From: Octopus sinensis
Lineage: Eukaryota
Direction: 5' to 3'
Assembly (NCBI RefSeq): GCF_006345805.1
Contig: NW_021833461.1
Location: forward strand, 9,540-73,539
DNA length: 64,000 nucleotides
Part shown: positions 13,304-64,000 of the stretch, in pieces
Position numbering within the stretch: position 1 is the first letter of the stretch
Layout of the letters: every line of letters starts with the position of its first letter
The notes under the pieces: model-generated
Databases searched by the model: none
What the model was told of the DNA's origin: nothing
Seen by the model: the letters and a program-made list of their open reading frames with translations, nothing else
Position numbers and translations under genes: made by a program

Positions 13304-16037
13304 TTGTGTGTTCATAGAGGTGGCTCCATTAACCACTACTGCCTGGCTCCTATCTTTCAGGAAGTTATACAACCACACTCCAAGTTTTCCAGCTATGCCG
13401 AGGTCACGTAGTTTGTGGCATATCATACCATGATCCACCTTGTCAAAAGCTTTTGCAAAATCAAGGTAGATTACGTCCACATTTGATTTGTTGAGTAACT
13501 ACCTCAACACCCAGTCATAATGCTGTAAGAGCTGGGTCAGCCAGCTCCTACCTGGTCGAAAACCATGCTGGGTATTACTCAGCAAGTTATTTTCCTCAAG
13601 GAATGCGATTAGTTTCTTTCTAACTATCCGTTCCATGACTTTGCTGATGTGTGAAGTCAGAGAGATAGGCCTATAGTTTTTGGCATCTGCTCTACTTCCC
13701 CCTTTTTGTATTGGGCATATTATTCGCAAGAAAGCTCTGGAAGAGAATCTTGAGGGGTTTTGCCAGGGCATGCTTACACACTTTGAGGAGGATGGCTGGG
13801 AAACCGTCTGGACCAGCAGCTGAGTTTGTGTCCACTTCATCTATGGCTAGTAGGACATCTTTTTCGCTGATGTCAATACATTTTATTGTAACCGCCTCGC
13901 TGGTTATAGGTGAGGCGGCAAAGAAGTCCACTAGTTCGTTCACTTGTCTGTGTTCCAACGGGGTAGTAAAGACACTTTTGAACTGGTCATTTAGCATCTC
14001 ACTGATCATAGTTGGACTGTCTGTGAGGGAGCCTTTTGGAGGAGGGGTCCTATCTTGTAGTGCACTGAGACTGTTTCTTTCGCGTAATGAAAGAAGGCCT
14101 TTGGGTTTGATTTAATGTTTTTTATAACCCAGGCTTCTTTGTCTGCTTTCTCCTTCACATAGGATTGTTGCAGCCTTTTTTCGATCTCCATCAGTGTTGT
14201 TTTTAGGCGGGACGTTTCGCTACTTTTGGGATGTTGGTTGAGACGATTTGCAACCTTCGTCCGTCGTCTCATGAGGATCTTCCTGTCTCTTGGAATCTTG
14301 CTCCTATTTGTTTTGGCCTTGTGCTCTGGGACATATTTCTGGCATACGGCTTGCACAGAAGACATGAAACATTCTAGTTTCATGTCAATGTCTGGTGTGG
14401 AGAGACATTCCGGCCAGTCCTCTCTGAGGATCTCTTTTTGGATCGACTTCCAATCTGCTTTGTGGAAGTTCAGATTGGAGAGATTTCGGGTGCTTCCTTT
14501 AGGCTGTATGTCTCTGGTTACTTTCGGCCCAAACATAGACAGCTCTATTATGTTATGATCCGAAACTGATGTCGGTGTCACTTTTACATCATGAATGATG
14601 TCCATATTGTTCGTGAAGCAGAGATCCAGAATGTTATTCGCCTTAGTTGGCTTGAGTACAACTTGCTCCATGAATAAGGCATTGGTGAGGTTGAGCAGGG
14701 ACTCCACCTGTACTTGCTTGCAATGATTCATTCCTGAGAGTATGTGACCTTCGGGCCATTTGACGTTGGGGAAGTTGAAATCACCCATACGAAATATGGT
14801 CACGTGGTGTTCCAGATTCATGAGGATTTCTTTAATTCTTGTGAGGCAATCTTCAAACTTGCCTATGTGATTTGGGGGCAATATGTATTGCATATGACTA
14901 TATTATGTTGTCTTATGTATACAATTAAGGTGTCACATACCGAATTTGAGTATGTCATCAAGACCTGGGGTGTGAGGTCATCTCGGATGTATACAGCAAC
15001 TCCACCATGGCTCCTTTCCCTTCTGTCTGTTCGCAGTATGGCATAGTTTGGTATGTGTACTTCTGTGTCCTCTATATCAAGGTTGAGGTGAGTTTCCACA
15101 AGTGCTATGCATAGGGCTTGATTGCATGCAGTAAGATCTCTCAGGAAAGAAATTTTGTTTCTATTTTGATGCAACATGCCTCCAATATTTAGTAAAAGTA
15201 TTGGGGTGACGGCTGTGCAGGCGTTAGGGGAGGCCATGCTGTGTCTGTTGACTGCGGTGGTCTTGCATAGTGGTGGACAGGGTTCCTTCTCTGAGCTTGG
15301 TGTAGCAAGGTTAGCTGCCGGACAATTCTTTCCGCCATGCATAAAAAAGACTCTTGCTTAGCTGCTGCGTTGCGCAGAACATCTGAGGAGCGCACTTCGT
15401 TTTTGAAAGTTTTCCTGGGAGACATTTCTTGTGTTCCCTCGGTAAAGTTTTTCTCTTTGAGTCCCCTGAAGTTCTGGCGGGGTGTCGGGTGGGCGAACCG
15501 GCAGTTTTTGCCGTCCTCACCATGCCAACATTTGCCTCGCAGGTAGAACTTACAGGTTCTTCGGTGCCTTCCAGATTTCTTTTTCCTGAAGTGTACTGGG
15601 TGGCATTGGATCCTCCATGGGGTTCTCTGCTGTTTGTGTGGTGGGTTGGGGTTTCAGCTTTGGTTGTTTTGCCTTTTCCCTCCTTATTTTTGTTTTCGGT
15701 CCTTCCTTTTTTCTTCTGTTTTTCTAATTTTTCTAATTTTTCATTTCTTCGTAGGACCACTAGTACATAGGGGGCTTCCGGTTTCTGCTCCCTTGGCTCC
15801 CCTATCCTTCACTACTTGGTGGTTCACCGGGGTAGATGATCCATTTTCCTGAGGAACCCCTGGATCACAGAGACTTCCGGCTTCCTTCTCTTTTTCGTCC
15901 TCTTCATCCTCATCAGCCTTGCCACAATAATTTTCAATTATGTTGTCCAGTGTTTTGATGTGTGGTCTTATAATCATGTAAAACCGGATAAACTCATTTT
16001 TCTTCCGCTCTATCTGGTCAATGGTTCTATGAAAACC
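13304..16037 (-). mobile_element. CR1/L2-group LINE, frameshifted: ORF1 remnant, APE endonuclease and partial RT; truncated at both ends by (TA)n
   Basis: APE: LLLNIGG, IALVETHL, GGVAVY, MGDFNFP, NILDLCF, SDHNII. RT: AAGPDGFP, NYRPISLTS, QHGFRPGRS, YLDFAKAFDKVDH. Confidence 0.92.
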
Positions 16038-19524: not shown

Positions 19525-21190
19525 CTAAGAGGAGGGGGCTGTGTTGAGTTCGTGTGGGGTAGTGGTTTGTAGGGTGAAGATTTAGCGTTGCTCCAAGTGG
19601 AGCCTAGATAGTGGACGACCATTGTGTGGGGGGAGACCAAACACTGAGATGTCATCTGGGGAATGGCTGGCCGAGCGGAAGTGGCGTGCGACGGGAGAAA
19701 AAGAGTGTAGGCGAACGTCCCTCAGATGTTCTGCGAATAGGTCAGACAACCGGCGTCCCGTCTGTCCTACATACCGCATCCCGCATAGGTTGCATTTAAT
19801 GCAGTATATGAGGCCAGACGAGGTGCACGTAAAAGAGTGTCTAATACGTACAGTTCGCCGGTTGGAGCCGGTGACAGCAGTGGTGTTGGTGATGAAGGGG
19901 CAGGTGTTGCAACGGGATCTAGAGCACGGGAAAGATCCGTGTGGGGCTGAGGGGGAAGGAGAGAGGGTGCTGTGGACCAGGAGGTCGCGTAGATTCTGGG
20001 CTCGTTTGAAGGAGGACAGGGGTGGGTTGGGGAAAATGGGGCGGGTTGTGGGATCGAGCTGGAGGCGACGGAAAAGGAGGGGGAAGGGTGTGCGGTTGGG
20101 GGGGTGAGAGGAAGGTGGTGCGGTCGATGCGACGGGCGCGGGCGAAGGCATTTGAGATGAGTATAGGTGGGTAACCTCGGAGTCTTAACAGGCGGGCCAG
20201 GTATTGAGATTGGGTCTCGAAAACCTGGTCGCGGCTGCACAAGCGTCGGTGGCGGAGGAACTGGGAGTAGGGGATGGCTCGTTTGGTGTGGAAGGGGTGG
20301 GAGGAGGAGAAGTTGGGATAGAGGTGGGAATCCGTGGGTTTAAAGAAGGCGGTGGTGGTGAGAGAGTGGGAGGGGTGGTCGATTCGGAGAGAGATGTCAA
20401 GGAAGTTGACAGAGGTGTTGGAGATGGTTGAGGTGAATTGTAGGGAGGGGTGAAAGTTGGAAAGGAAAGAGATGAATTGGCAGAGAATTTCACGGGAAAG
20501 GGAGGTGGCACCTATGCAGTCGTCTATATAGCGACCGTACAGTTCAGGGGTCGGCCTGGAGAATTGGGAGAATACTTGGGCCTCAATGTAGCCAAGAAAG
20601 AGATTAGCGAAATTGGGGCCCATTCTAGTTCCCATCGCGACCCCGGACATCTGTTGGTACGTTTCCCCGGCGAACGTGAAACAGTTGAGGGTTAGAACGA
20701 GCTCTGCCAGGCGGAGAAGTGTGGGGGTGCTGGGGGTGGGGTCGGGACGACGGTCGAGGAAGTGTTGGAGGGCTAGGAGACCGTCATTGTGGGGAATCAC
20801 TGGGTACAGGGATTTTACATCTAAAGTGAAGAGGAGGTGTGAGGGGCTGGAAGGGAAGGAAAAGGAATTGAAGAGACGGAGGGCGTGGTTGGTGTCGTGT
20901 ATGTGGGATGGGAGGGCTGCGACTAAGGGGGACAGGATGCGGTCGAAGTATAGGGAAATGTGTTCAGTGGGGCAATTACAGGCAGAGACTATGGGACGGC
21001 CAGGATTATTGGGTTTATGGATCTTGGGAAGGAAATAGATGGTGGAGGTGCGGGGTGTGCGGACGATGAGGTTGGTGGCGGTGGGGGGGAGAGCAGTAGA
21101 GGAGATGAGGTCGTGGATGGTGGAGGACACTCGCTGTTGGTAGGAGGAGGTGGGATCGGAGGGAAGGAGGCGATAGAAGAGGGGATTTTG
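19525..21190 (-). pseudogene. Penelope-like RT + GIY-YIG endonuclease (Neptune-type), frameshifted
   Basis: FLPKIHK..PGRPIVS, TLDVKSLY, GVAMGTRMGPNFANLF, YGRYIDD; Cys linker PCSRSRCNTC; IYCIKCNLCGMRYVGQTGRRLS..EH. Confidence 0.93.
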
Positions 21191-21225
21191 AAATACATAT
21201 ATATATATATATATTTATATATACA

Positions 21226-23476: not shown

Positions 23477-23634
23477 GTATATATATATGTATGTTATATT
23501 ATATGTATATATATATTGTTATATTTCGGAATGGTCATTTTGCCAGTTTAGCCAATAAAAGCACACGCACTATATATTTGGTGTTACTTTGCTTCAGTGT
23601 TATTTATTTTTTACATTAATCTTAATCTTATTTC

Positions 23635-23679
23635 GGCCAGAGTTCTTTCGTCACACTCCTATGACCGCATCAGTGGTCC
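23635..23679 (-). ncRNA. Hammerhead variant in the inverted pLTR
   Basis: Reverse complement of 27533-27577 (one substitution). Confidence 0.65.
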
Positions 23680-24281
23680 TTTGTTTTCTTCTCACTTATT
23701 TGTGTCTCTCCTTACTAACCGTCAGCCATTTTGTATTTCTATTGTATGTCTTCATTTGCGCATGCTTATATCTCTATGTGCGTTTATGTTTATTTAGTGT
23801 GTGTATGTGGGGGATACCTATAATATTTGTATCTTCTGTTTATATATGTTCATGTAATTTGTATTTTGCAGTTTGTTTTTTGTTTTTTGTTTTTGTTTTT
23901 GTTTTTGTTTATTCTTATTTTGTTCATGTGTTTACATCCACCCATTATTATCATTACATATGCTTGTATGTATGTATGTATGTATGTATAACAACAATAC
24001 TAGTAATAATAATAATAAATTGAATCGAAAATATATATATATATATATTATATATATATATACACATATATATATACATATACACACACATATATATATA
24101 TAGTTATTTATTCATTTATCTGTGTATTTATTGTTTTCAGGATCCTCTATCGTCATATGTTGTGGTGTGTGTTAGTGCTCCATTCTAGTTTTCTCTATAT
24201 GTATATGTATATATATATGTACATATATATGTATATATATGTATATATATATATGTATATATATATATGTATATATATATG

Positions 24282-24313
<32 letters not shown>

Positions 24314-24386
24314 AAATAAATAAATAAATGACTATATATATATATGTGTGTATATGTATATGTATATATATATATATATGTATATA

Positions 24387-24955
24387 TTGTCATCAAAAAA
24401 GGGGGTAGAATTAATTAATTGTTAATAAATTCGACCAAGCAGTATTCGGTATGTAAAGACCATTTACGGTAATTTGAAGTATTATTTATAAAAATATGGT
24501 AAAGTATAAAAATTCACTTTACCACACACCGAACTTTTCAGAAATAGCAGCCAAAGATTTGGCTATTTCTTCAACTGCAAATAAAAGTCTCCAGACAATG
24601 CATACTCAAAATAACTCACATAGGTATAAGGGAAAAACAATGAAAGATCACATCCATATACGATACCCGAGGACAGTCTGTTTCTGGATTTGTGGGTAAA
24701 ACGCCACTTTTCCTTCATCAGCTCAGAGATTTCTTCTGATTTAGATTTGAAAATACTAAGAATCAAACATACCCGTCCGATATCTGTAACAACGGACAAA
24801 CCATGCCAGACACCCAGTACTAGCGAATCCAAGGCATTGTCTGGAGACTTTTATTTGCAGTTGAAGAAATAGCCAAATCTTTGGCTGCTATTTCTGAAAA
24901 GTTCGGTGTGTGGTAAAGTGAATTTTTTTACTTTACCATATTTTTATAAATTAAT
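24387..24955. mobile_element. Family E HHR element with inverted arm, nested in the (TA)n of the PLE pLTR
   Basis: 24834-24950 is the reverse complement of ~24486-24601; host pLTR sequence resumes on both sides. Confidence 0.85.
24667..24726 (-). ncRNA. Type I hammerhead, canonical core (family E)
   Basis: Minus strand: CTGAG-CTGATGA-A-GGA aaa GTGG..CCAC aaa TCC-A-GAAA-CAG a CTG-TC-CTCGG. Confidence 0.85.
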
Positions 24956-25068
24956 ATATATGTATATATATATTTTTTTTTTCGATTCAATTTATTATTA
25001 TTATTACTAGTATTGTTGTTATACGTACATACATACATACATACAAGCATATGTAATGATAATAATGG

Positions 25069-27039
25069 GATGATGTGGACAATTGTTCTGGGACCCCAGA
25101 AACGTACAGGAAATAATTTCCAAGCCTGGAACAATGATATCCCGGCACTGTATGGACTTCGCAAGGACCATAAAATAATTACTGACCCTATAGCAGGACC
25201 ACCAACAAGACCAGTCTGTGGAGCGAATATCGCTAGCAATTACAGCATCTCCTACTTCCTCTCAATGATCATACGCCCTATAATCCGAATGTCACCTGAT
25301 GTTTGTGACAGCACAGAAGATCTCCTCAGCAGGATCGATGACTGTAACAGAACTTGTGACCTGACAGGATGTATGGTGGATAGCATGGATGTGGTATCCC
25401 TATACCCATCGATCGACGTAGATTTTGCGGTGGAGAAGTGCGTGGAGATGATCAATGAGAGCCAGGTGGAGTTCTGTAATGTCAACACAGAAGAACTGGG
25501 CCTCCTACTTAGACTGACATGTAATACTGAATACTTAGATAAACATAATCTTAGTAGTTTCTGCCCCAGTAGATGTTTAAGAGTAGGTAGACCGCCCAAA
25601 TTACTTCTATGACTAGGAAGACACATATAGAAAGATGGCGCGGATGGACCAGAGCCATACGGAGCCCTGCAAATGTCCATCAGATAAAGAAAATGATCGC
25701 ACATGCACTAGGAGCTAGTATAAGAATTACCCTAAAAGGCCACACGTTTAAGTTTAATAATAAAATATATGCCCAGGACGAGGGGGCAGCCATCGGCGTT
25801 AGTATCGCTGGTGATGTGGCCAACCTTTTCATGGTATGGTGGGACAGAAGGCTTAAAGAACGCCTAACACAGAACTCCATACTCGTAAACATGTACTCCC
25901 GTTATGTTGATGATATCAACATAGTGGTAAAGGCACCCCCACAAGAGAGCAATGTTGATATAGTAATAGAAACTAATACTATGGAGAGCATCCAGCAAAT
26001 AGCTAACTCCATCCACCAGAGTATTAAGGTCACAATAGACTACCCCACTAAACACCCCAACCATAGACTACCAGTACTAGACACCGAACTCTGGCTAGAA
26101 ATTGTGAATAATAAAACCCAAATCCTTTATTCATACTATGCCAAACCTATGGCCTCAAAATACTTGATCCACCGGAACTCAGCCATTGCGGACAATGCCA
26201 AATTCAATATTTTGATGGCAGACCTCGTCAGAATAATGAGAAATGTGCCATGCATGTGCGAGCCCACAGAGTTAAAGAGACACATACAATATTTCATTCA
26301 CCGCATGCAGTTCTCAGGTTACAGCCATAAAGAAAGGATCAGAGTATACAAAGGAGCCATTAAGAAATTTGATAATATATTATGTAATGATAGGAATGGT
26401 ATTTGCCCACTCTATAGGAACAAGTCATGGAACACTATAGAAAGGACAAAAAATAAAATAGGGAAGGTCAACTCTTGGTATGATAGCCATAAATACCAGA
26501 GTGTCATGTTCGTTGACACCACTCCTGGAGGTGAACTGGCGTATCGCTTTAGAAGGACCCTAGACAAACTTAAGCTAAGAATTAAGGTTGTTGAAAAGCC
26601 AGGCAACCCTATCAAATCTATAATTGGTAGAACCTATCCTTTTAGTAGAAGCCCCTGTACAGATAGGTACTGTACTGTATGTAGATTTAGCCCACAAACA
26701 AACTGTAAAGCCAGAAATATGGTCTATAGTATAAGATGTATAGAGGGACGATGCAGTAACAAGACAACGACATACGTAGGGGAAACGGCAAGAAGCATAG
26801 GAGAGCGGGTAAATGAGCATTGGAGACAACTCAAAGAAGGTAAAAGCTCATCGATTCTGTACCAACACGCCGAACAAAAACATGGGGGATCAATCAATAA
26901 CATAGAAATTAAAATATTATCCACACATAGATCAGATGCAACAATTAGACAAATTACAGAAGCTACACACATAATAGAAAATAAACCTAGCCTGAATAGA
27001 AAACTAGAATGGAGCACTAACACACACCACAACATATGA
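25069..27039 (+). pseudogene. Penelope-like RT + C-terminal GIY-YIG endonuclease, 5'-truncated, one frameshift near 25600
   Basis: LYGLRKDHK, PPTRPVCGA, SMDVVSLYPSI, GAAIGVSIAGDVANLFM, YSRYVDD, CTDRYCTVC..C, VYSIRC..YVGETARSIGERVNEH, EA..I..NKPSLN. Confidence 0.93.
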
Positions 27040-27532
27040 CGATAGAGGATCGTGAAAACATAATAAATACACAGATAAATAAATAAATAACTATATATAT
27101 ATATATGTGTGTGTATATGTATATGTATATATATATTTTTTTTTCGATTCAATTTATTATTATTATTACTAGTATTGTTGTTATACATACATACATACAT
27201 ACATACATACATACATACATACATACATACATACATACAAGCATATGTAATGATAATAATGGGTGGATGTAAACATATGAACAAAATAAGAATAAAAACA
27301 AAAAACAAAATACAAAATACAAAATACAAATTATATGAACATATAAAATTACAAATTACATGAACATATATAAACAGAAGATACAAATATTACAGGCATC
27401 CCCACATACACACACTAAATAAACATAAACACACATAGAGATATAAGCATGCGCAAATGAAGACATACAATAGAAATACAAAATGGCTGACGGTTAGTAA
27501 GGAGAGACACAAATAAGTGAGAAGAAAACAAA

Positions 27533-27577
27533 GGACCACTGATGCGGTCACAGGAGTGTGACGAAAGAACTCTGGCC
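27533..27577 (+). ncRNA. Minimal hammerhead variant in the 3' pLTR (CUGAUGC core)
   Basis: GGACCA-CTGATGC-G-GTCAC aggagt GTGAC-GAAA-G aa C-TC-TGGCC; same strand as the ORF. Confidence 0.7.
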
Positions 27578-27755
27578 GAAATAAGATTAAGATTAATGTA
27601 AAAAATAAATAACACTGAAGCAAAGTAACACCAATATATAGTGCGTGTGCTTTTTATTTATTGCTAAACTGGCAAAATGACCATTCCGAAATATACAATA
27701 TCTGTTTCAACACACGACTTCACATAAAAAATCTTGCACAACAAATATTTAAACG

Positions 27756-27792
<37 letters not shown>

Positions 27793-35057: not shown

Positions 35058-38021
35058 CAGTGGTTTCCAACCAGGGTTCCGCCAGTACAGTCCAGGGGTT
35101 CCGCAAGAAGTTACATAAATGCTAAACTCGACAGTAAATTTTAATTCTCCTGTGCAGATATGTGTGTACATGTTAGGCCTACGTGTATATCTACGAGTTG
35201 CACGCCAGCGTAGATGACCCTGATCCTTGGTGTGTATGTGTAGGCCTACGACGTGTACAACTACGAGTTACTCGCCAGCGTAGATGACCCTGATCCTTGG
35301 TGTGTACATGTACGTGCACATCTACGAATTGCATGCCAGCTTAGATGATGGTTTAGTTTTCTTTTGTAAAATACGAGTGACTATATTTGGAAGAAACATT
35401 TTAACTGCGTAAGCCATTTATTTAGGTGTTGTTGTTAATACGCCTTTTAAAATATCTTTAGCTTTTTAAAAGGTGTTTTTGTAAAATATTTTTCTTGTAT
35501 GACTTCTATTAATATATGGTCAAATGTTAAGATTAAAAAATCCGGAAGAGAGTTGAATTACATATGTAGAAAAAAAATAAGAAATAGGGAAACTGATACT
35601 AAATTATAAGATATGTAAATATGCATAAATATTAATTCCTTACAAATTTCTAAATTAGAACAATGAACAAATAAATGACATTTTAAATTCAAATCCGAAA
35701 ATATATTTTAATTATTATATGCATATTGTTTAAATATAATGAAATACCTAGTACTAAAAAAAAACATTAATAAAAAAGCTAAATTTTACATCATTTAACT
35801 CGCTACACTTTAAAGATCATTTCGTCCTGCCACTATTAGGTTTGCTTTCATATATATATACAATTCTGCTTACAGCCTTACAAGTATGGATAGATTTCTG
35901 AAAAAAACGTAAGTTAGATACAGATGAAGAGACGCAGGGTCTGAGGCAGTCTGTTGAAGCTGCAGCCACTGCCAGTGATGCTGCCTCGTCGAAATTACCA
36001 AGAAATGATGGAATTAACCTGCAACTAAAAGTTCGTCAATATTGTGAAAACTACATAGCTCTGGGAATGGAAACCCAGACTGCTCTTCACCTTTGTGTAC
36101 TGTTTCTGGGGAGAAGCTGGCTAATAGTACTATAGCACCAGCCAAGCTGAAACGACACTTAACAACTAAACATCCAGAGTTGTCAGGCAAAAAAGAACAA
36201 TATTTTAAAAGAGAATTGGCATTTAATAAAAGGCAAGTTTGCCAAAAAGTTCAAGTTGAGTGACAAAGGACAAGAAGCAAGTTATGCTGTGGCGGAGATA
36301 GTTGCAAGAAAAATGAAATCTCATACCATCGCTGAAACTGTAATTTTACCTGCATGCCAGGAAATAGTGAGGATAATGTTTGGAGAGGATGCTGTATCAG
36401 ATCTAAATAAAATTCCATTTTCTGACAACATAATAAGTAGGCGCATTCAAGACATGTCAGGAGACATTGAGTGCAATATTAAGTCAAAAATACTGAAACA
36501 TAAGTTGTTTGCACTTCAAGTTGATGAGAGTACAGACATCACTGGTAAATCACAGCTCCTTGTATTTGTTCGTTTTATTAATGATGAAACTATTGTAGAA
36601 GACGTCCTGTATTGCAAAGAGTTGCCAGAAACAAGAAAAGGACAAGATGTATTTGATGTTTTAAATTCATATTTAGAGTATTGTGGATTGAACTGGAAAA
36701 ACTGTGTTGGTATTTGTACAGATGGTGCCCCTGCAATGACAGGATGTCTTAAAGGCTTTGTCCCAACCGCACAAAAACAAAATTCAAATGTTTCATTCAT
36801 AGAGAAGCACTAGTTGCTAAAACTTTTGGACCTGAACAAAAATCTGTATTGGGTATGGTAGTGAAAATAAATAATTACTTCAAAATGAGGCCACTTAAAT
36901 GTCGACAGTTTGCGAAACTTTGTGTGGGTATGGAAGCAGACCATTTCACCTTAATCCAGCACACAGAAATACGATGGTTGTCAAGGGGAAAAGTATTGTC
37001 TCGTTTTTACGAATTAAGAGAAGACCTTTTGACCTTTTGTTTGCAAGAAAACCTGAAAGACTTTGAAAAATGTTTGAGTGATGACCATCGGTGTTCCAAG
37101 TTAGCATATTTTGCCGATATATTTCATGAGCTAAGCCTCTTGAACAATGGCATGCAGGGCATGAACGAAAATATATTGTCTTCTACTGACAAAATAAATG
37201 CTTTTCAGAAGAAATTGACAATATGGAAGAAACACATAGCTGCAGGAAATTTGGAAATGTTTCCAAGTGTTTTTAAAAGGAATTGTCAAGAAACTTCGTT
37301 ACTAATTTTGAACCATTTGCACACTTTGTTAACAAATCTTGACAAATATTTTCCATCGATATCTGTTGACCAGTATGACTGGATTAGAAACTCATTTGTG
37401 GAATTTGAGCCATTTGAAGAACAGTTCACATTATCAGAAGAAGAAGAACTTGCTAGTGTTTTAAATGACAGAACATTAAAGTTGAAGCATTCTGAGCTTC
37501 ACCTGAATGCATTTTGGTTGCTGGTTGAAAAGGAATATCCTGCAAACGCCCAGAAAGCGCTGCGACTTCTTGTGCAGTTTTCAACCACCTACTTCTGTGA
37601 ATTTGGATTTTCAACTCTGACAGCCATCAAGCACAAGAAGCGAGCACAATTGCTGTCTGTGGAAGATGAACTTCGTGTGTGTCTATCGACCCAATCTTAG
37701 GGAGTTGTGCAAGAAACACCAGGCTCAAGTTTCTCATTGAGTTTTTGATGAGAATAAATGTAATCTATTCAAACTAAAGTTTTTTTAATACATGATTTAA
37801 TAATAACTGTAGATGCAAGAATAAAATTGCATATGTACGTGACAATTTTTTACAGTTTGTGATTTTATTGTAAATAAATCTGAACATGAGTATTTTCATT
37901 TCATTAATTAAATGCTGTTTTTTTTTTTGCGTAAGACAATTAAATTATTGCACAGGGGCTCCTCGAGCCAGTGGAATGTTTCCTTGGGGTTCCGCTCCAG
38001 CAAAAAGGTTGAAAAGTACTG
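35058..38021 (+). mobile_element. Full-length but inactive hAT transposon, Buster/Charlie type
   Basis: TIRs CAGTGGTTTCCAACC / GGTTGAAAAGTACTG; 8-bp TSD ccctaacc / cactaacc with central TA; ~62-bp subterminal repeats at 35160-35350. Confidence 0.93.
35886..37740 (+). pseudogene. hAT transposase with BED finger remnant, frameshifted
   Basis: [49 protein letters not shown]. Confidence 0.92.
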
Positions 38022-51242: not shown

Positions 51243-51294
<52 letters not shown>

Positions 51295-51440
51295 ATATTT
51301 CGGAATGGTCATTGCCAGTTTAGCCAATAAAAACACACGCACTATATATTTGGTGTTATTTTGCTTCAGTGATATTTATTTTTTACATTAATCTTAATCT
51401 TATTTCGGCCAAAGTTCTTTCGTCACACTCCTGTGACCGC

Positions 51441-53239
51441 AATTACAGAATCTCCTACTTCCTCTCAATGATCATACGCCCTATAATCAGGATGTCACCT
51501 GATGTGTGTGACAGCACAGAAGATCTCCTAAGCAGGATCAGTGACTGTAACAAAACTTGTGACTTGACAGGATGTATAGTAGGTAGCATGGATGTGGTAT
51601 CCCTATACCCATCGATTGACGTAGATTTTGCAGTGGAGAAGTGCGTGGAGATGATCAACGAGAGCCAGGTGGAGTTCTGTAATGTCGACACAGAAGAACT
51701 GGGCCTCCTACTTAGACTGACATATAATAGTGAATACTTAGATAAACATAATCTTAGTAGTTTCTGCCCCAGTAGATGTTAAGAGGTAGACGCCTACAAT
51801 TACTTCTATGGCTAGGAAGACACATATAGAAAGATGGCGCGGATGGACCAGAGCCATACGGAGCCCCGCAAATGTCCATCAGGTAAAGAAAATGATCGCA
51901 CATGCACTAGGAGCTAGTATAAGAGTTACCCTAAAAGGCCACACATTTAAATTAATAATAAAATATATGCCCAGGACGAGGGGGCAGCCATCGGTGTTAG
52001 TATCGCTGGTGATGTGGCCAACCTCTTCATGGTATGGTGGGACAGAAGGCTTAAAGAATGCCTACTGCAGAAATCCATACTCGTAACATGTACTCTCGCT
52101 ATGTTGATGATATCAATATAGTAGTAAAGGCACCCCCACAAGAGAGTACTGTTGATATAGTAATAGAAACTAATACTATGGAGAGCATCCAGCAAATAGC
52201 TAACTCCATCCACCAGAGTATTAAGGTCACAATAGACTACCCCACTAACACCCCAACCATAGACTACCAGTACTAGACACTGAACTCTGGCTAGAAATTG
52301 TGAAAAAAATAAAACCCAAATCCTTCATTCATACTATGCAAAACCTATGGCCTCAAAATACCTGATCCACCGGAACTCAGCCATTGCGGACAATGCCAAA
52401 TTCAATATTTTGATGGCAGACCTCGTCAGAATAATGAGAAATGTGTCACGCATGTGCGAGCCTACAGAATTAAAGAGACACATACAGTATTTCATTCACC
52501 GCATGCAGTTCTCAGGTTACAGCCATAAAGAAAGGATCAGAGTATACAAAGGAGCCATGAAGAAATTTGATAATATATTATGTAATGATAGGAATGGGAT
52601 TTGCCCACTCTATAGGAACAAGTCATGGAACACTATAGAAAGGACAAAAAAGAAAATAGGGAAGGCCAACTCTTGGTATGATAGCCATAAATACCAGAGT
52701 GTCATGTTCGTTGACACCACCCCTGGAGGTGAACTAGCGTACCGCTTTAGAAGGACCCTAGATAAACTTAAACTAAGAATTATGGTTGTTGAAAAGCCAG
52801 GCAACCCTATCAGATCTATAATTGGTAGAAGCTATCCTTTTAGTAGAACTCTCTGTACGGATAACTATTGCACTGTATGTATAGATTTAGCCCACAAACG
52901 AACTGTAAAGCCAGAAATGTGGTCTATAGTATAAGATGTATAGAGGGACGATGCAGTAACAAGACAGTAACATACGTAGGGGAAACTGCAAGAAGCATTG
53001 GTGAGCGGGTGAATGAACATTGGAGACAACTCAAGGAAGGTAAAAGCGCATCGATTCTGTACCAACACGCCGAACAAGAACACGGGGGATCAATCAATAA
53101 CATAGAGATTAAGATATTGTCCACACATAGAACAGATGCAACAATTAGACAAATTACAGAAGCTACACATATAATAGAAAATAAACCTAGCCTGAATAGA
53201 AAACTAGAATGGAGCAATAGCGCACACCACAACATATGA
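51441..53239 (+). pseudogene. Penelope-like RT + GIY-YIG, multiple frameshifts
   Basis: GSMDVVSLYPSI, YSRYVDD, YVGETARSIGERVNEH. Confidence 0.92.
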
Positions 53240-53749
53240 CAATGGTGGATCCTGCAAACATAATAAATACACAGGTAATGAAAGAAATAAAAATGAATAT
53301 CTATATATATGTATATGTGTATATATGTGTATATGTATATGTGTATATATGTGTGTATATATGTATATATATATATGTGTATATGTATGTATATATATAT
53401 GTATATTCTTTTTATTTATTATTTATTTTTTTTTTTCGATTAGATTTATTATTATTATTACTAATATTGTTGTTATACATACATACAAGCATATGTAATG
53501 ATAATAATGGGTGGATGTAAACACATGAACAAAATTAGAACAAAAGCAACAACAACAAAAACAAAATACAAATTACAAGAATGTATATAACCAGAAGATA
53601 CAAAATATTACAGGCATCCCCCCCACACACACACTAAATAAACATAGACGCACATAGAGATATAAGCATGCGCAAATGAAGACATACAATAGAAATACAA
53701 AATGGCTGACGGATAGTAAGGAGAGACAAGTAAGTGAGAAGAAAACAAA

Positions 53750-53793
53750 GGACCACTGATGCGGTCACAGGAGTGTGACGAAAGAACTTTGCC
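53750..53793 (+). ncRNA. Hammerhead variant in the 3' pLTR
   Basis: Same as 27533-27577 with an altered 3' helix I strand. Confidence 0.55.
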
Positions 53794-53968
53794 GAAATAA
53801 GATTAAGATTAATGTAAAAAATAAATATCACTGAAGCAAAAAACACCAAATATATAGTGCGTGTGTTTTTATTGGCTAAACTGGCAATATGACCATTCCG
53901 AAATATAACAATATCTGTTTCAACACACGACTTCACATAAAAAATCTTGCACAACAAATATTTAAACG

Positions 53969-54335: not shown

Positions 54336-54339
<4 letters not shown>

Positions 54340-55220
54340 CTTGACCGACCAGTCCGTCGAGCGTCCATTTGACACCGCTGGTCACAGTACGCTGTCCACT
54401 CCTCTCTGTATCGCGCCTTTCTCATCCAATTGATCCCAATCGTCCTCCTGAAATCGTAACTCCACCGTCGTGGAGGCCTTCCGGATGGTCGTTTCCGCTC
54501 GCGCGGGTACCACTCAACAAATGCGCGGATCCACCGATTATCGGTGAGCCGGGAGACGTGTCCAGCCCATCTAAATTTCCTGCGTGTATACTCTGCGATG
54601 ACATCCCTCACGCCGGACTTCTTTCTGATGATCTCGCTGTCATCACCCGTACGAGTGCCGGTCAAGAAGAGAGTGAAGCAAGGAGATACGATCTCCCCAA
54701 AACTTATCACCGCATGTCTCGAGCAGATCATCAGAGGTATCGACTGGCAAGGCGGTGTCAACATCAATGGCGAGCTCCTCACCCATCCTCCGTTTCGCTG
54801 ACGAAATCGTACTTATCGCTGAAACCACGGATCAGCATCTGACCATGCTGACGGAGATCGACATCAAAAGCTCTGCAGTACCAACAGGTTGAATGGTGAT
54901 CGGCAGAGATGAAATAGAGGAGGTAAAGGAATATGTCTACCTGGGACAGGAAGTGAATATGTGCCGAGATATCGAAAAGGAGATCTCACGGAGAGTAAGG
55001 GATGGATGGAAGGCGTTTAATGGCATAAGGGATGCGCTCAAGGGAAGGTTGGACAGGACCACCCGCGCCAACCTCATCAACAGTACAGTTCTACCTGCAA
55101 TGTTATATGATAGTGAAACATGGGCTACCAAAAAGCGAGAAGAGCAGAGACTGGTTACGGCCCAAAGAGCCATGGAAAGGTCAATGCTGGTATTTCGTTG
55201 AGAGAGCACATCAGTAGCGA
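54336..55220. mobile_element. RTE-clade LINE with 5' inversion
   Basis: Minus 54336-54638 is the C-terminus (RWAGHVSR..RKRPSGRPPRRW). Plus 54640-55220 is upstream RT (VKQGDTISPKL, YVYLGQ, LPAMLYDSETW). Confidence 0.88.
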
Positions 55221-56108: not shown

Positions 56109-57103
<995 letters not shown>

Positions 57104-57286
57104 TAAAAGGGCTTAGTAAAATAAATTACTTTGCCGCATACTGAACTCATTAGAAATAGCAGCTAAAAAAACTTTTTTAAAACTATTCTAATACTTAAAG
57201 AAAACCTCTCTCATATAGTGTTTGCTCAATTCAACTCACGAAAGTATGGGGGTAGAGACATTAAAAAATCAAATGCAAAGGTTATT

Positions 57287-57339
57287 TGAGAACGTACGTT
57301 TCAAGATTAGTCAAACTCGACATTTCTATCATCAGCTCA
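57287..57339 (-). ncRNA. Type I hammerhead (family F, copy 1)
   Basis: Reverse complement of 59037-59089. Confidence 0.8.
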
Positions 57340-57844
57340 GAACTCCCTGGTTTGGATTTGAAAACACTGAAAGTGGGAGCATACCCTTTCGGCTTCTTAT
57401 CGCTTCTGAAGATCTGCTCGAAACTAACAGTGCCAACAAACTCAAAAATGCAAGCGAAGAATTTCTGCTCTCCCCTTTCCACCAGCGTGGGTTAAAATCA
57501 GCAAACACTATGCTTTTTTCGATAAAATTCGAGGCATTATATAGAGAGAGATGAATTATAATTTCAACAATTGAGGGTAAAATTAATTAATTAATCAATT
57601 TCACCAAGTATTCAGTATGCAAAGGGACCATTTAAGGCGAATTCAAATTATTACATTATATAAAAGGGCTTAGTAAAATAAATTACTTTGCCGCATACTG
57701 AACTCATTAGAAATAGCAGCTAAAAAAACTTTTTTAAAACTATTTCTAATACTTAAAGAAAGCCTCTCTCATATAGTGTTTGCGCAATTCAACTCACGAA
57801 AGTATGGGGGTAGAGACATTAAAAAATCAAATGCAAATGTTATT

Positions 57845-57897
57845 TGAGAACGTACGTTTCAAGATTAGTCAAACTCGACATTTCTATCATCAGCTCA
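57845..57897 (-). ncRNA. Type I hammerhead (family F, copy 2)
   Basis: Reverse complement of 59037-59089. Confidence 0.8.
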
Positions 57898-58402
57898 GAA
57901 CTCCCTGGTTTGGATTTGAAAACACTGAAAGTGGGAGCATACCCTTTCGGCTTCTTATCGCTTCTGAAGATCTGCTCGAAACTAACAGTGCCAACAAACT
58001 CAAAAATGCAAGCGAAGAATTTCTGCTCTCCCCTTTCCACCAGCGTGGGTTAAAATCAGCAAACACTATGCTTTTTTCGGTAAAATCCGAGGCATTATAT
58101 AGAGAGAGATGAGTTATAATTTCAACAATTGAGTGTAAAATTAATTAATTAATCAATTTCACCAAGTATTCAGTATGCAAAGGGACCATTTAAGGCGAAT
58201 TCAAATTATTACATTATATAAAAGGGCTTAGTAAAATAAATTACTTTGCCGCATACTGAACTCATTAGAAATAGCAGCTAAAAAAACTTTTTTAAAACTA
58301 TTTCTAATACTTAAAGAAAACCTCTCTCATATAGTGTTTGCGCAATTCAACTCACGAAAGTATGGGGGTAGAGACATTAAAAAATCAAATGCAAAGGTTA
58401 TT

Positions 58403-58455
58403 TGAGAACGTACGTTTCAAGATTAGTCAAACTCGACATTTCTATCATCAGCTCA
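58403..58455 (-). ncRNA. Type I hammerhead (family F, copy 3)
   Basis: Reverse complement of 59037-59089. Confidence 0.8.
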
Positions 58456-59036
58456 GAACTCCCTGGTTTGGATTTGAAAACACTGAAAGTGGGAGCATAC
58501 CCTTTCGGCTTCTTATCGCTTCTGAAGATCTGCTCGAACCTTTGCATTTGATTTTTTAATGTCTCTACACCCATACTTTCGTGAGTTGAATTGAGCAAAC
58601 ACTATATGAGAGAGGTTTTCTTTAAGTATTAGAAATAGTTTTAAAAAAGTTTTTTTAGCTGCTATTTCTAATGAGTTCAGTATGCGGCAAAGTAATTTAT
58701 TTTACTGAGCCCTTTTATATAATGTAATAATTTGAATTCGCCTTAAATGGTCCCTTTGCATACTGAATACTTGGTGAAATTGATTAATTAATTAATTTTA
58801 CCCTCAATGTTGAAATTATAATTCATCTCTCTCTATATAATGCCTCGGTTTTACCGAAAAAAGCATAGTGTTTGCTGATTTTAACCCACGCTGGTGGAAA
58901 GGGGAGAGCAGAAATTCTTCGCTTGCATTTTTGAGTTTGTTGGCACTGTTAGTTTCGAGCAGATCTTCAGAAGCGATAAGAAGCCGAAAGGGTATGCTCC
59001 CACTTTCAGTGTTTTCAAATCCAAACCAGGGAGTTC

Positions 59037-59089
59037 TGAGCTGATGATAGAAATGTCGAGTTTGACTAATCTTGAAACGTACGTTCTCA
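59037..59089 (+). ncRNA. Type I hammerhead (family F, copy 4)
   Basis: TGAG-CTGATGA-T-AGA aat GTC..GAC taa TCT-T-GAAA-CGTACG-TT-CTCA; palindromic ACGTACGT helix III. Confidence 0.82.
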
Positions 59090-59596
59090 AATAAGCTTTG
59101 CATTTGATTTTTTAATGTCTCTACCCCCATACTTTCGTGAGTTGAATTGAGCAAACACTATATGAGAGAGGTTTTCTTTAAGTATTATAAATAGTTTTAA
59201 AAAAGTTTTTTTAGCTGCTATTTCTAATGAGTTCAGTATGCGGCAAAGTAATTTATTTTACTGAGCCCTTTTATATAATGTAATAATTTGAATTCGCCTT
59301 AAATGGTCCCTTTGCATACTGAATACTTGGTGAAATTGATTAATTAATTAATTTTACCCTCAATTGTTGAAATTATAATTCATCTCTCTCTATATAATGC
59401 CTCGGATTTTACCGAAAAAAGCATAGTGTTTGCTGATTTTAACCCACGCTGGTGGAAAGGGGAGAGCAGAAATTCTTCGCTTGCATTTTTGAGTTTGTTG
59501 GCACTGTTAGTTTCGAGCAGATCTTCAGAAGCGATAAGAAGCCGAAAGGGTATGCTCCCAATTTCAGTGTTTTCAAATCCCAAAACCAGGGAGTTC

Positions 59597-59649
59597 TGAG
59601 CTGATGATAGAAATGTCGAGTTTGACTAATCTGAAAACGTACGTTCTCA
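59597..59649 (+). ncRNA. Type I hammerhead (family F, copy 5)
   Basis: As copy 4, with TCT-GAAAA variant. Confidence 0.75.
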
Positions 59650-60004
59650 AATAAACTTTGCATTTGATTTTTTAATGTCTCTACCCCCATACTTTCGTGA
59701 GTTGAATTGAGCAAAACTATATGAGAGAGGTTTTCTTTAAGTATTAGAAATAGTTTTAAAAAGTTTTTTTAGCTGCTATTTCTAATGAGTTCAGTATGCG
59801 GCAAAGTAATTATTTTACTAAGCCCTTTTATATAATGTAATAATTTGAATTCGCCTTAAATGGTCCCTTTGCATACTGAATACTTGGTGAAATTGATTAA
59901 TTAATTAATTTTACCCTCAATTGTTGAAAATATATATATATATATAAATATATAAATATATATATATATATATGTATACTATATATATATATATATATAT
60001 TAAA

Positions 60005-60035
<31 letters not shown>

Positions 60036-60089
60036 GGTATTATATATATATATATATATAATATATAAATATATATGATATATATATGT

Positions 60090-60120
<31 letters not shown>

Positions 60121-60285
60121 GTATATATATATAAATAAATATATATATATATATATGTATATATATGTATATATATATATATATATATAAATATATATAT
60201 ATATTATATATATATGTTATATATATATGTATAATATATATAAATATATATATATATATATAAATAATATATTATAATATATATA

Positions 60286-60568
60286 GCAACGAATTGCTTA
60301 CCAAATACCGAATTTAGAAATAGCAGTCAAAGTATTTCTTACTAAAAAGGGAGATGTCAGTAAAAAACAGCAATTGCTGTTTTTACTGAGATCTCCCTTT
60401 TTAGTAGAAGAAATAGCTATAACTCTTTGACTGCTATTTCTAAATTCGGTATGTGGTAAGGCAATTCGTTGCTAAACCCTTTATTGCTTATTATTACTTA
60501 AATTTTTCCTTAAATACTTGGTGTAATTGATAATTATTCCAAATTAATTAATTTCACCCTTCATTATT

Positions 60569-60572
<4 letters not shown>
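60286..60572. mobile_element. Family L foldback fragment related to families E/F
   Basis: Imperfect arms centred on cagcaattgctg (~60368-60379), plus a ~100-bp tail ending aattaattaatttcaccc; shares gctatttct..ttcggtatgtggtaa with E. Confidence 0.75.
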
Positions 60573-60906: not shown

Positions 60907-63900
60907 AACCCAAGCCGCAGGTGGGACTACCCACTATATATACCAGACCACCACAGCAAACAGACACAGGATGGACACCGCCGGCAACAACGTACACCTC
61001 ACCTCGATACTCCTACTGAACATCAGAGGACTGCAAACACGCAGTAACAGGACAAAGATCCCGTCCTGAGAGACTTTGTTGCATGCAATCAGCCTTATGC
61101 ATAGCACTTACAGAAAAGCACCTCTAACCGGACAGAGCAGATGCGGAGTTACACATACCGCAGTATGCTGTACTACGGACCGACAGGAAAGAAAGGAGTC
61201 ATGGAGGTGTTGCTATGTACATCCGTGAGGACCTCACACCCAGGTCCTCTTGTTATACTCAAACTCGATGTGTGACACACTAATTATACATATTAGGCAA
61301 CTTGAGTAGTTGTGTGTGTGCTACATATCGCCCTCCAGATGCCCAAGCCATGTGGGCAAGTTTGAAGACTGCCTTATAAAAATAGAAGAAATTCTAACCA
61401 CATTAGAACAACACATAGGTGTGCTTCTATGGGAGACTTCAATCTGCCCAATGTCAGATGGCCCGAGGGCCTTTCTCTCCCAGGAATGACAAGATGTGAA
61501 CGAGGACAGGCGAGGTCCCTCCTGAACCTCATCAAACCCTGTACATGGAGCAGGTAATACTCCAACAACCAGGGCAGGTAACACACTGGATCTCTGCTTC
61601 ACAAATGACATGGATCTCATCCATAATGTGAAAGTGACACCGACACTACTCTCGGATCACAACATGATAGAGCTGACCATGTACGGGCCAAAAGAGAGCA
61701 CGGACATGCAGCCTACAAGAAACCCTCAAAATCTTTCCAGCTTGAACTACCATAAGGCAACTGGAAACAAATTGAGAAAGAGATCCTCAAACAAAACTGG
61801 CCTAAATGTCTCTCCTCGCCAGACATCGACGTGAAACTTCAACAATTCATGTCTGTAATGCAAGCCATATGCTACAAATGTGTCCCAGAGAGAAAGGCCA
61901 CTGTACACAAGAACAAAATCCCCAGAGAGAGGAAAATTTAATGAGACGGCGTACGAAATTTTCAAATCGCCTAAACAAACAGATTGAAAGCAGTGAAAAG
62001 TCCCGCCTAAAATAAAACTATGGGAAATCGAAAAATGTCTGCAACTCTCCCATGAAAAAGAAAGAGCAGACAAAGAAGCCTGGGCTATAGAAAACATAAA
62101 ATCAACCCCGGAGCTTTCTACAGGTATGCCAAAGAAACAGCTACAGTGCACTGTAGAATAGGGCCACTCTCGAAAGGATGGCACACTTACAGGAAACCAA
62201 TGAGGGTAAGTGAAATACTGAATGAGCAATTCAAGAGTGTTTTCACTCCACCCCTTGGGCATCTCCAAATCACCAATCCAATCCAACTGACTTTTTTACC
62301 ACTGCAGATATAAAATCAGAGGCGGCGACGATAGATTACATCGATATAAAGGAAGACGATGTAACCAAGGCTATAGATGAAATGAAAACAGACTCAGCTA
62401 CTGGCCCCGATGGATTCCCGGCAATCCTCCTAAAAGCATGTAAGAGAGTCCTAGCAAGACCACTGCAGTTCCTCTTTCAGAGCTTCCTTGCAGCTGGCAA
62501 ACTTCCAGGAAAACTGAAGGAAGGTAAAATATGCCCCATTCATAAAGGAGGTAGCAGAGCGGAAGCCAAGAACTATAGACCTATCTCTCTGACCTCACAC
62601 ATCAGCAAGGTCATGGAACGAATAGTCAGAAGGAAGCTGATCACCTTCCTTGAAGAGAATGACTTGCTGCCCGACACCCAACATGGTTTCCGACCAGGAA
62701 GAAGCTGCTTAACTCAGCTCCTACAACACTATGACTGGGTGCTGAAACGGCTGCTCAACCACTCAAATGTGGAAGTGATATATCTCGACTTTGCAAAGGC
62801 CTTTGATAAAGTCGATCATGGAATGATATGTCACAAACTGCGTGATAGTTGGAAAACTGGGAGAATGGCTTCATGACTTTCTGAAGGATAGAAGTCAGGT
62901 GGTAGTAGCCAATGGGGCCACCTCATTTAACACACAAATAGTGAGCGGTGTTCCGCAGGGCACTGTTCTGGGACCACTACTGTTCATAATGGCCCTCTCA
63001 GACATGCCCTCAGCCACGCAGAGAGCCACGATCACAAGTTATGCAGATGATACAAAAGTTTCACAGGCAATACAGAACCCTGAGGACACTAAACACCTGC
63101 AATGTGAGCTGGACGAATATACAAGTGGGCTGAAAGAATAGCATGCAGTTCAATGCTGGAAAGTTTCAAGCTTTATACTATCAGCATGCAAAACTGAATG
63201 CAATACCCAATGAATACACTGGACCCGGAGGGATTGCAATCCAAGAGGCACAATCAGTGCGTGACCTGGGTATTCACATGAGTGATGACGCGACCTTTCA
63301 TGTACATTTTGCTAAACTGACAATGAAATGTAGACGGCTGGCTGGCTGGATTCTTAGAACCTTAGAACAAGAGAACAAGAAACCATGATGGTCCTCTGGA
63401 AGACACTTGTCCTAAGCCACATTGACTATGCTCTCAGCTATGGTCACCATCCAGTGTCAAGTTGATCACAGAACTTGAGGCGCCCAACGAAGCTACACAA
63501 AGAAGATAGCTCTATGCAGAATGTAAGCTACTGGGAAAGACTCAAGAGATTAAAATTATATTCCCTGGAGCGTAGGCGGGAAAGATATGCCATAATATAC
63601 ATCTGGAAGATCCTGGAGGGAAGTGTCCTGAACTTTGGCATCGAGAGTTACGCAAACGCCAGAACTGGGCGCCACTGCGTGGTGCCTAGGACTCCAAACC
63701 TGCCATCAAGATGTAGGACAAGATTCTGTGATAGCCTGGGCTTCCGAGGCCCACAGCTCTTCAATATCCTCCCGAAGAACCTGAGAGACCGGCATGGGGT
63801 GGATACAGATGTCTTTAAAATGAAGCTGGATCTCTTCCTGTCAGGTGTCCCAGATGAACCAACTTCACGGCAGGAGGGGCAGATGAGGGCAGCTGCATCG

Positions 63901-64000
63901 AACTCTCTCATGCACCAAATAGCAGTTGCTAGAAAAGCCTCCATGAAGTGAAACCAAGTAGCAACACCAAATGGCGGTGCCCCAGCATGAAACTAGAATC
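60907..64000 (+). mobile_element. CR1/L2-group LINE, nearly complete but frameshifted ORF2 (APE+RT) and 3' end
   Basis: ILLLNIRG, GGVAMY, MGDFN, LSDHNMI, ATGPDGFP, DFAKAFDKVDH, SGVPQGTVLGPLLF, YADDTK, LYSLERRRERY; stop at 63951; tail ggcggtgccccagcatg. Confidence 0.94.

Follow-up and report, generated by a model that had tools for sequence, protein, structure and literature searches.

Head-to-head retrozyme insertions in Octopus sinensis pair two fixed end sites, one per arm

The 64,000-nt stretch of Octopus sinensis DNA analysed here as a whole (the window; positions 9,540 to 73,539 of contig NW_021833461.1, assembly GCF_006345805.1) contains a retrozyme, i.e. an array of near-identical non-coding units with predicted hammerhead ribozymes, nominally 558 bp each, arranged as two arms that meet head to head within a (TA)n tract. 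The array is a real insertion and an ordinary member of its family, and the main finding is a family-wide rule, not a single locus: in head-to-head insertions one arm ends at one fixed site of the unit and the other arm at a second one. That the arms start at two different fixed sites, and that this arrangement is the family norm, had been missed by the initial annotation of the window. We consider it probable, with some reserve, that the element is a non-autonomous retrozyme mobilised by Penelope-like elements (PLEs) through double target-primed reverse transcription at (TA)n, with two fixed sites on one, probably circular, 558-nt RNA.

Results and Discussion

One arm ends at site A and the other at site B

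The search of the octopus genome scored the best 40 of 1,367 candidates. One hundred loci were mapped: 40 best-scoring ones, 40 taken along contig C1 with a tail motif and 20 with an upstream motif, the latter two samples forming a position-sampled set of 60 loci. Locus L046 was dropped as a duplicate of L033, L082 failed junction mapping, and homopolymer columns were masked. In the position-sampled set 42/60 loci are head-to-head and 18/60 single-armed; tail-to-tail contacts are confined to two complex loci with adjoining inserts. The 3' ends of the arms fall at site A (unit ~283-291, just past a hairpin) or at site B (unit ~191-207, in an unpaired loop), about 95 nt apart; unit numbering begins with the T that follows the first base of the 3' cleavage product. 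Both sites coincide with short TATA matches to the target and both are internal, lying neither at the ribozyme cut nor at poly(A). Both ends could be classified in 71 pairs, not counting four head-to-head loci (L041, L051, L070 and L076) whose outer end could not be assigned; 70 of the 71 combine A with B, one is A+A and none is B+B (P~6e-20 versus 50:50). The tail-motif set is blind to short B+B pairs. In the best-scoring set, where all three classes could be detected, 30/30 pairs are A+B, and so are 5/5 further pairs examined later. The insertion in the window follows the rule, with B on the left and A on the right. This family-wide pairing bears out the initial annotation's view of an insertion free of autonomous open reading frames (ORFs) with a PLE-style inversion.

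The B arm exceeds the A arm in length in 28/68 pairs, which excludes simple copy-back of the A arm and speaks for independent synthesis of the arms. The lengths of paired arms are loosely correlated (rho 0.42, partly a sampling effect). Self-priming or fold-back, in which a single cDNA is copied back on itself, has already been proposed for PLE inversions (PMC3846280) and accounts for the shared haplotypes described below. It is contradicted as a general route by the longer B arms, and most junctions are out of phase. The 5' ends lie within 15 nt of each other in 10/68 pairs (P=0.012), and such near-mirror junctions include the palindrome at 60287-60572 of the window; however, the excess is not significant without the pairs that both stop at the cleavage site (6/64 versus 4.0, P=0.21). 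Self-priming is thus very unlikely as the explanation of the rule, but may apply to a minority of loci.

The arms of an insertion share their variants

Per site, there are 0.0067 substitutions within an arm, 0.0080 between the two arms at one locus and 0.0195 between different loci. In 135 cases a non-consensus base is fixed in both arms; in only 4 is it fixed in a single arm (L036, L105 and L046 left out). When 42 polymorphic sites are compared, the arms are without difference in 43/50 loci, versus 10-14% of cross-locus pairs, and in the position-sampled set they agree in 20/20 loci. The pool comprises 33 haplotypes in 43 loci. From this haplotype comparison L076, L061 and L074 were also left out, the first two likewise from the register tests presented below. 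As judged from the assembled copies, these counts show that both arms of a locus come from the same source, in keeping with the earlier suggestion that both DNA ends were primed on the same RNA source, and we infer that they were copied from the same RNA molecule. When unit variants are compared between the arms in the window, as the initial annotation had envisaged, 346G is common to all four covering units.

Two RNA molecules of the same locus might instead have been held together, for example by helix III of the hammerhead, and copied one per enzyme subunit. This helix is a self-complementary palindrome, ACGUACGU, and related hammerheads cut better as dimers (PMC7229834); strand displacement would not be required, and the loose correlation of arm lengths, partly due to sampling, would fit. 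But haplotypes would be mixed if the RNAs paired only after export, and no such mixing is observed, so that pairing would have to be co-transcriptional; moreover, two RNAs alone leave unexplained why one copy is used at A and the other at B. We therefore find this alternative rather improbable.

The array in the window

The insertion has the following layout.

56109..57101, no strand: left (TA)n target flank, about 1 kb
57102..58538, minus strand: left arm, 1437 nt = 2.58 units; runs in RNA sense from unit ~426 (5') to site B, unit ~191 (3'); the outer edge reads ...CCCTTTTATATA followed by (TA)n
58537..58538, no strand: head-to-head junction, 2-nt microhomology AA, by direct sequence reading
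58537..59929, plus strand: right arm, 1393 nt = 2.50 units; runs from unit 7 (5') to site A, unit ~286-291 (3'), there reading ...TTGAAA followed by (TA)n
59225..59377 (approximate bounds), plus strand: three-way junction and hairpin, one internal copy, conserved, predicted
59835..59929, plus strand: tail between sites B and A, ~95 nt
59930..60285, no strand: right (TA)n target flank, about 0.36 kb

Full units share 97.7-98.2% identity with the query unit and recur at a period of 556-560; the measured 2.58 and 2.50 units match the approximately 2.6 and 2.5 near-identical units counted before. The microhomology annotated at the junction was found again as AA, or as a 3-nt overlap if a one-base slip is permitted. 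Likewise, the right arm does begin about 7 nt past the predicted cleavage, the first 7 nt (CUCAAAU) of the 3' product being missing; this offset belongs to a pile-up of ends at the cleavage site (see below), which fits a linear cleaved end or a ribozyme stall at least as well as a circle. That both 3' ends run into (TA)n also stood, but the ends are not equivalent (unit ~191 versus ~286-291): the right end has the tail and the left end is without it. Site B lies in the unpaired AU-rich loop of the predicted three-way junction and site A lies immediately 3' of the last hairpin. The 558-nt monomer folds more stably than all of 100 shuffles (z=-4.68).

There is no reverse transcriptase (RT) ORF within the array and no ORF with RT and GIY-YIG domains; there are only stop-to-stop frames of 109-113 aa on the antisense strand, in agreement with the absence of a PLE ORF between units noted initially. 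Nor was a PLE ORF seen joined to an arm in the fetched loci. A long terminal repeat (LTR) structure is absent in that the arms pass directly into (TA)n; no search was made for a primer-binding site or polypurine tract.

An assembly fold-back could in principle produce inverted arms, and the contig that holds the window is small and unplaced. The arms are however out of phase, with different end sites and different sequence, the same design is present at more than 70 loci, and four other runs have, in their short-read contigs, five strand-change joints of the same kind (each in one contig, with 21-27 nt on the shorter side). Such an artefact, which the initial annotation had raised, is therefore extremely improbable. 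The window's own junction is not among the contig records listed (14,755 further records exist), which has no bearing either way.

Junctions, truncated ends and target sites

The 5' ends of the arms, A arms included, are scattered across the unit. Forty-three of 73 junctions are insert-free, with a mean overlap of 1.9 nt versus 0.75 at random; the other 30 contain 1-62 additional bases, which in many cases are copies of unit sequence. The variable 5' ends are thus joined via overlaps of 1-4 nt or via short inserts. A pile-up is seen at the cleavage site, with 16/146 arm 5' ends in unit 555-20 versus 6.3 expected (P~8e-4), while the next 24 positions hold 2; both arms stop there in several loci. 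(TA)5+ is present on both sides in 84/99 loci, and flanking duplications were found in 5/99 loci versus 0/400 controls. The clearest, about 15 (L041), 38 (L102) and 42 bp (L115), enclose whole insertions; L041 is located outside a long (TA)n tract.

In L1 twin priming, the second DNA end primes a second cDNA and joining by microhomology gives an inversion; the second site is used opportunistically, and the stretches of RNA covered by the arms do not overlap. The insertions described here differ in having a fixed second site and arms of overlapping sequence whose lengths vary independently. L1-type twin priming, where the first cDNA halts beside the second priming site, was rejected, A-arm 5' ends being spread over the unit.

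Unequal crossover has been discussed for such repeats (bioRxiv 10.64898/2026.07.22.740005), and the array could be a solo PLE terminal repeat expanded as a DNA-level minisatellite with the inversion added later. Variants shared by neighbouring units, and variants that repeat with period 3 or 4 in L5859 and L044, would be expected. However, this process does not produce fixed 3' ends in pairs, 5' ends truncated at variable points, a spread across many chromosomes or flanking duplications, and we give it slightly less weight still than self-priming. The neighbour-shared and period-3/4 variants, taken at face value, show DNA-level copying or multimeric templates in some arrays.

Circular or linear template

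In the integration by PLE proteins that we favour, tandem units would be transcribed, the hammerhead would cut between GUU and C to release monomers, and a host ligase would circularise them. Nicks in both strands of a (TA)n tract would be made by a PLE reverse transcriptase-endonuclease that acts in trans. The protein, probably as a dimer, would bind the conserved three-way junction, and the DNA 3' ends would pair with the RNA, one through UUAUA at site A and its counterpart through UAUAUA at site B. Both enzymes would make 0.1 to about 30 rounds of the template, with the one behind displacing the cDNA of the other, and would often halt at the ribozyme or at a nick there. The two cDNA 3' ends would be joined via microhomology repair, with later DNA-level conversion or expansion between neighbouring units in some cases.

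The template is likely circular because of four observations. One arm of a related family, F2 (see below), comprises ~31 near-identical units (17.5 kb) running from site A (G000:C10411:14486-31971), with 8 substitutions in 30 full units (0.06% per site). Another locus has 0 substitutions in 9 full units spanning both arms. The joints across the cleavage site are mostly precise (256 sites), and haplotypes are fixed over whole arrays. On balance a circle is the likelier template for long arrays, and both circular and linear templates are expected to be used. The initial annotation had proposed a circular or multimeric RNA; the common RNA source stands, and circularity of the template is likely.

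Biochemical data exist for Poseidon PAc of Anolis, a purified PLE protein (Frangieh et al. 2024, PMC11167929). In vitro both strands are nicked and extended, and synthesis starts internally at two sites bounding the tail. Two internal starts bounding the tail and an AT-rich target are common to PAc and to the retrozyme, and PAc is predicted to be a dimer. Unlike in PAc, both start sites here carry short UAUA matches to the target.

Several points weigh against mobilisation by PLEs on a monomer circle. The start site of PAc is strand-independent in vitro, whereas each insertion here uses one of each, and hammerhead cleavage is unnecessary in vitro (PMC11167929). The tail (~95 nt) exceeds both the 30-40 nt published for PLEs (PMC8557442, PMC3846280) and the 57 and 42 nt of two autonomous PLE families of this genome. 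The unit is also without similarity to these two families (50 and 30 loci; blastn, nhmmer), the sole unit-like matches in those loci being retrozyme copies nested inside two of them. A fragment in L182 is a third lead to a possible partner. At L101 (G000:C1:75141757-75145318), four private substitutions are in register between the arms when counted from the primed ends, so that no monomer circle was the template at this locus, unless the pattern arose from conversion or polishing instead, as it could. Rare alleles shared across arms are rank-matched in 11/17 cases of a first set versus 5.2 expected (the sites not being independent), and in 0/3 of a second set. In the window, 64C is found only in two neighbouring left-arm units and 177G only in two neighbouring right-arm units, for which later conversion or assembly polishing is needed. 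Finally, 42/103 arms cross no cleavage site; together with the pile-up there, this means that linear RNAs suffice for many insertions.

Part of these data would also be explained if two-site PLE priming used linear RNA transcribed from a source array, spanning several units and in part uncleaved, a circle being unnecessary. The in-register private variants of L101 and the 5' ends heaped at the cleavage site, where several loci have both arms stopping, speak for such a template. Moreover, unprocessed RNA serves as the main substrate in vitro (PMC11167929), and the weak helix III of such hammerheads leads to poor cleavage of monomers (PMC7229834). Against it, transcripts of 17.5 kb across about 31 uncut hammerheads would be required, and the 33 haplotypes fixed over whole arrays would imply repeated bottlenecks of a single unit followed by re-multiplication. 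Additional multi-unit loci are without in-register sharing (0/3 rows), and the variant unit of L101 is absent from source arrays among the 40 scored matches. We regard a linear template throughout as unlikely, though as a more serious competitor than paired RNAs.

Predicted hammerhead ribozyme

Five predicted hammerheads were located in the array, with CUGAUGA...GAAA cores at 57335, 57893 and 58451 on the minus strand and at 59041 and 59601 on the plus strand.

57283..57343, minus strand: predicted type I hammerhead 1, cleavage after 57291 (motif, constrained fold)
57841..57901, minus strand: predicted type I hammerhead 2, cleavage after 57849
58399..58459, minus strand: predicted type I hammerhead 3, cleavage after 58407
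59033..59093, plus strand: predicted type I hammerhead 4, cleavage after 59085 (between GUU and CUCAAAU)
59593..59653, plus strand: predicted hammerhead 5, altered core CUGAAAAC; cleavage position 59645

The count of five given initially thus holds for the positions, but only four cores are intact: the fifth reads CUGAAAAC in place of CUUGAAAC, possibly owing to an assembly indel. Rfam gave no hammerhead match at gathering score (one irrelevant match at E=4), and the isolated 86-nt ribozyme region, folded without constraints, is no better than shuffles (z=+0.96). With Rfam silent, the call is made because of the motif, of constrained folding, which gives helix I, a helix II that has U-U at its base and a helix III of 2 bp, and of compensated changes that keep helix I paired in relatives. 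As to self-cleavage, these helix I changes and the pile-up of 5' ends at the predicted cut are at most indirect signs. It resembles axolotl HHR_Amex2, with its 2-bp helix III with tetraloop and U-U at the base of helix II (PMC7229834). A CCGAUGA core variant was observed in units of a 543-nt subfamily (L117, L128), and a GUA cleavage triplet at about 10/256 joints.

Family size and related elements

Exact 30-mer matches in the genome number 2,001 for one sequence and 3,935 for another, the latter taking in a 543-545-nt subfamily, and reversed controls gave 0. The first 100 matches of the 2,001-match 30-mer form 48 clusters, from which roughly a thousand loci or more can be estimated. The unit is covered in 29/29 bins by contigs of four sequencing runs (three organism codes). 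L033 (contig C6) and L046 (C8) hold an identical insertion with the same junction and similar flanks on both contigs, which would be a later duplication or transport within another element.

Two related families occur in the window, F2 (24388-24956, ~560 nt) and F3 (60287-60572, ~590 nt); identity is 56-64%, both with the unit and between the two families. Each keeps the hammerhead core, the two end sites and the set of stems, and helix I, though altered, is still paired; across relatives, 6/33 pairs of the three-way junction are altered on both sides (four sequences only). Among 28 F3 loci there are 16 A+B pairs, one odd end, 11 single arms and no like-like pair, and F2 provided two clear A+B pairs and several odd ends. 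The F2 copy of the window is a head-to-head A+B insertion nested in (TA)n sequence of an autonomous PLE; the F2 family has 2,199 first-look candidates. The F3 copy is a near-perfect palindromic insertion with a short tail deletion versus other copies, and the F3 hammerhead has an extended helix II.

The two young autonomous PLE families have an RT, a CxxxxCxxC linker and a GIY-YIG domain and are inserted in (TA)n. Pairs of one tailed and one untailed copy were found in 11/11 cases for the family with a 57-nt tail and in 11/11 for that with a 42-nt tail. By the criterion of PMC8557442, with motifs judged by eye, they appear to be of Neptune/Nematis type; Pfam gave one weak RVT_1 match only on four PLE frames of the window, and the clade labels therefore rest on eye-read motifs. 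Two frameshifted copies of the 57-nt-tail family, each of them head-to-head with the tail at one end, lie at 23516-27757 and 51290-53968 of the window; elsewhere this family has ORFs of up to 1119 aa with an asparagine-rich N-terminus, and its terminal repeat contains a CUGAUGC...GAAA hammerhead-like motif. The 42-nt-tail family (L251-L280, e.g. G000:C1665:153782-161030) has 13,666 candidates and more than 100 copies identical over 90 aa, and it was apparently very recently active; a pattern search of one scanned locus found no CUGANGA core. The window also contains, at 19582-21214 on the minus strand next to (TA)n, what we take from its motifs to be a remnant of a third PLE-like RT with GIY-YIG, presumably Poseidon-like. 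We further take ORF translations at 13499-15357, 61300-63950, 54336-55200 and 36163-37700 to be decayed LINE-like RT/endonuclease fragments and a hAT-like transposase fragment.

Relation to known systems and implications

Metazoan non-LTR retrozymes have been described by Cervera & de la Pena 2020 (PMC7229834) and Li et al. (bioRxiv 10.64898/2026.07.22.740005), and PLE rolling-circle reverse transcription is a model already proposed for them. As in those elements, the family consists of tandem non-coding units of low GC with one type I hammerhead each, a highly self-paired monomer and co-occurring PLEs. Its unit of 558 nt is longer than the ~170-400 nt of PMC7229834 and inside the 51-972 range of the bioRxiv study. 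Retrozyme RNA circles are present in three animals (PMC7229834). The words 'inverted', 'opposite' and 'orientation' are absent from the accessible text of PMC7229834 by term search, and the methods, results and discussion of the bioRxiv study mention no head-to-head arms, fixed priming sites or tail. Such repeats have been described as without a conserved motif hinting at a partner (PMC7761336), unlike here, where a conserved structure and a PLE-type end signature occur. In the available text of a cephalopod repeat annotation (PMC13282606), a term search found neither 'ribozyme' nor 'retrozyme'.

As in endonuclease-containing PLEs (PMC8557442, PMC3846280), the insertions have an inverted, 5'-truncated head-to-head copy, a tail at one end, (TA)n targeting and microhomology joints. 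They differ in having no ORF and up to ~31 tandem turns, and the one-tail rule is here quantified together with proof of a shared source variant. ORF-less derivatives with multicopy head-to-tail insertions are also known among Chlamys PLEs, including the non-autonomous MRC1 (PMC8557442), but most Chlamys are without hammerheads and have a 3' end like that of the autonomous partner, a likeness not found here with the two PLE families compared. Retrozymes, proposed PLE rolling-circle copying, PLE inversions, the one-sided tail and two in vitro start sites are already published. Literature searches, supplements aside, found no retrozyme with a PLE end signature, no strict one-site-per-strand pairing and no report of a template variant shared between arms.

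The route of tandem and inverted PLE insertion and the mobiliser of animal retrozymes are open questions in PMC8557442, PMC11167929 and bioRxiv 10.64898/2026.07.22.740005. The families described here supply population-scale constraints, i.e. two fixed starts with one per strand, a single RNA source and a conserved RNA structure housing the sites, and tie retrozymes to the PLE machinery through an insertion signature, not through mere co-occurrence. They also offer a template, small and well defined, with which circular and linear RNA could be compared in vitro using the PLE protein already purified. It is possible, although we would not count on it, that PLE integration obligatorily involves two enzymes on a single RNA circle, with a structured signal allotting one start site to each DNA strand and up to about 30 turns, so that one mechanism would yield pseudo-LTRs, inversions, the one-sided tail and retrozyme arrays. 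If two enzymes on one RNA circle proved true, these insertions would be its first genomic record, and the 558-nt unit would be a programmable template for (TA)n-targeted insertion.

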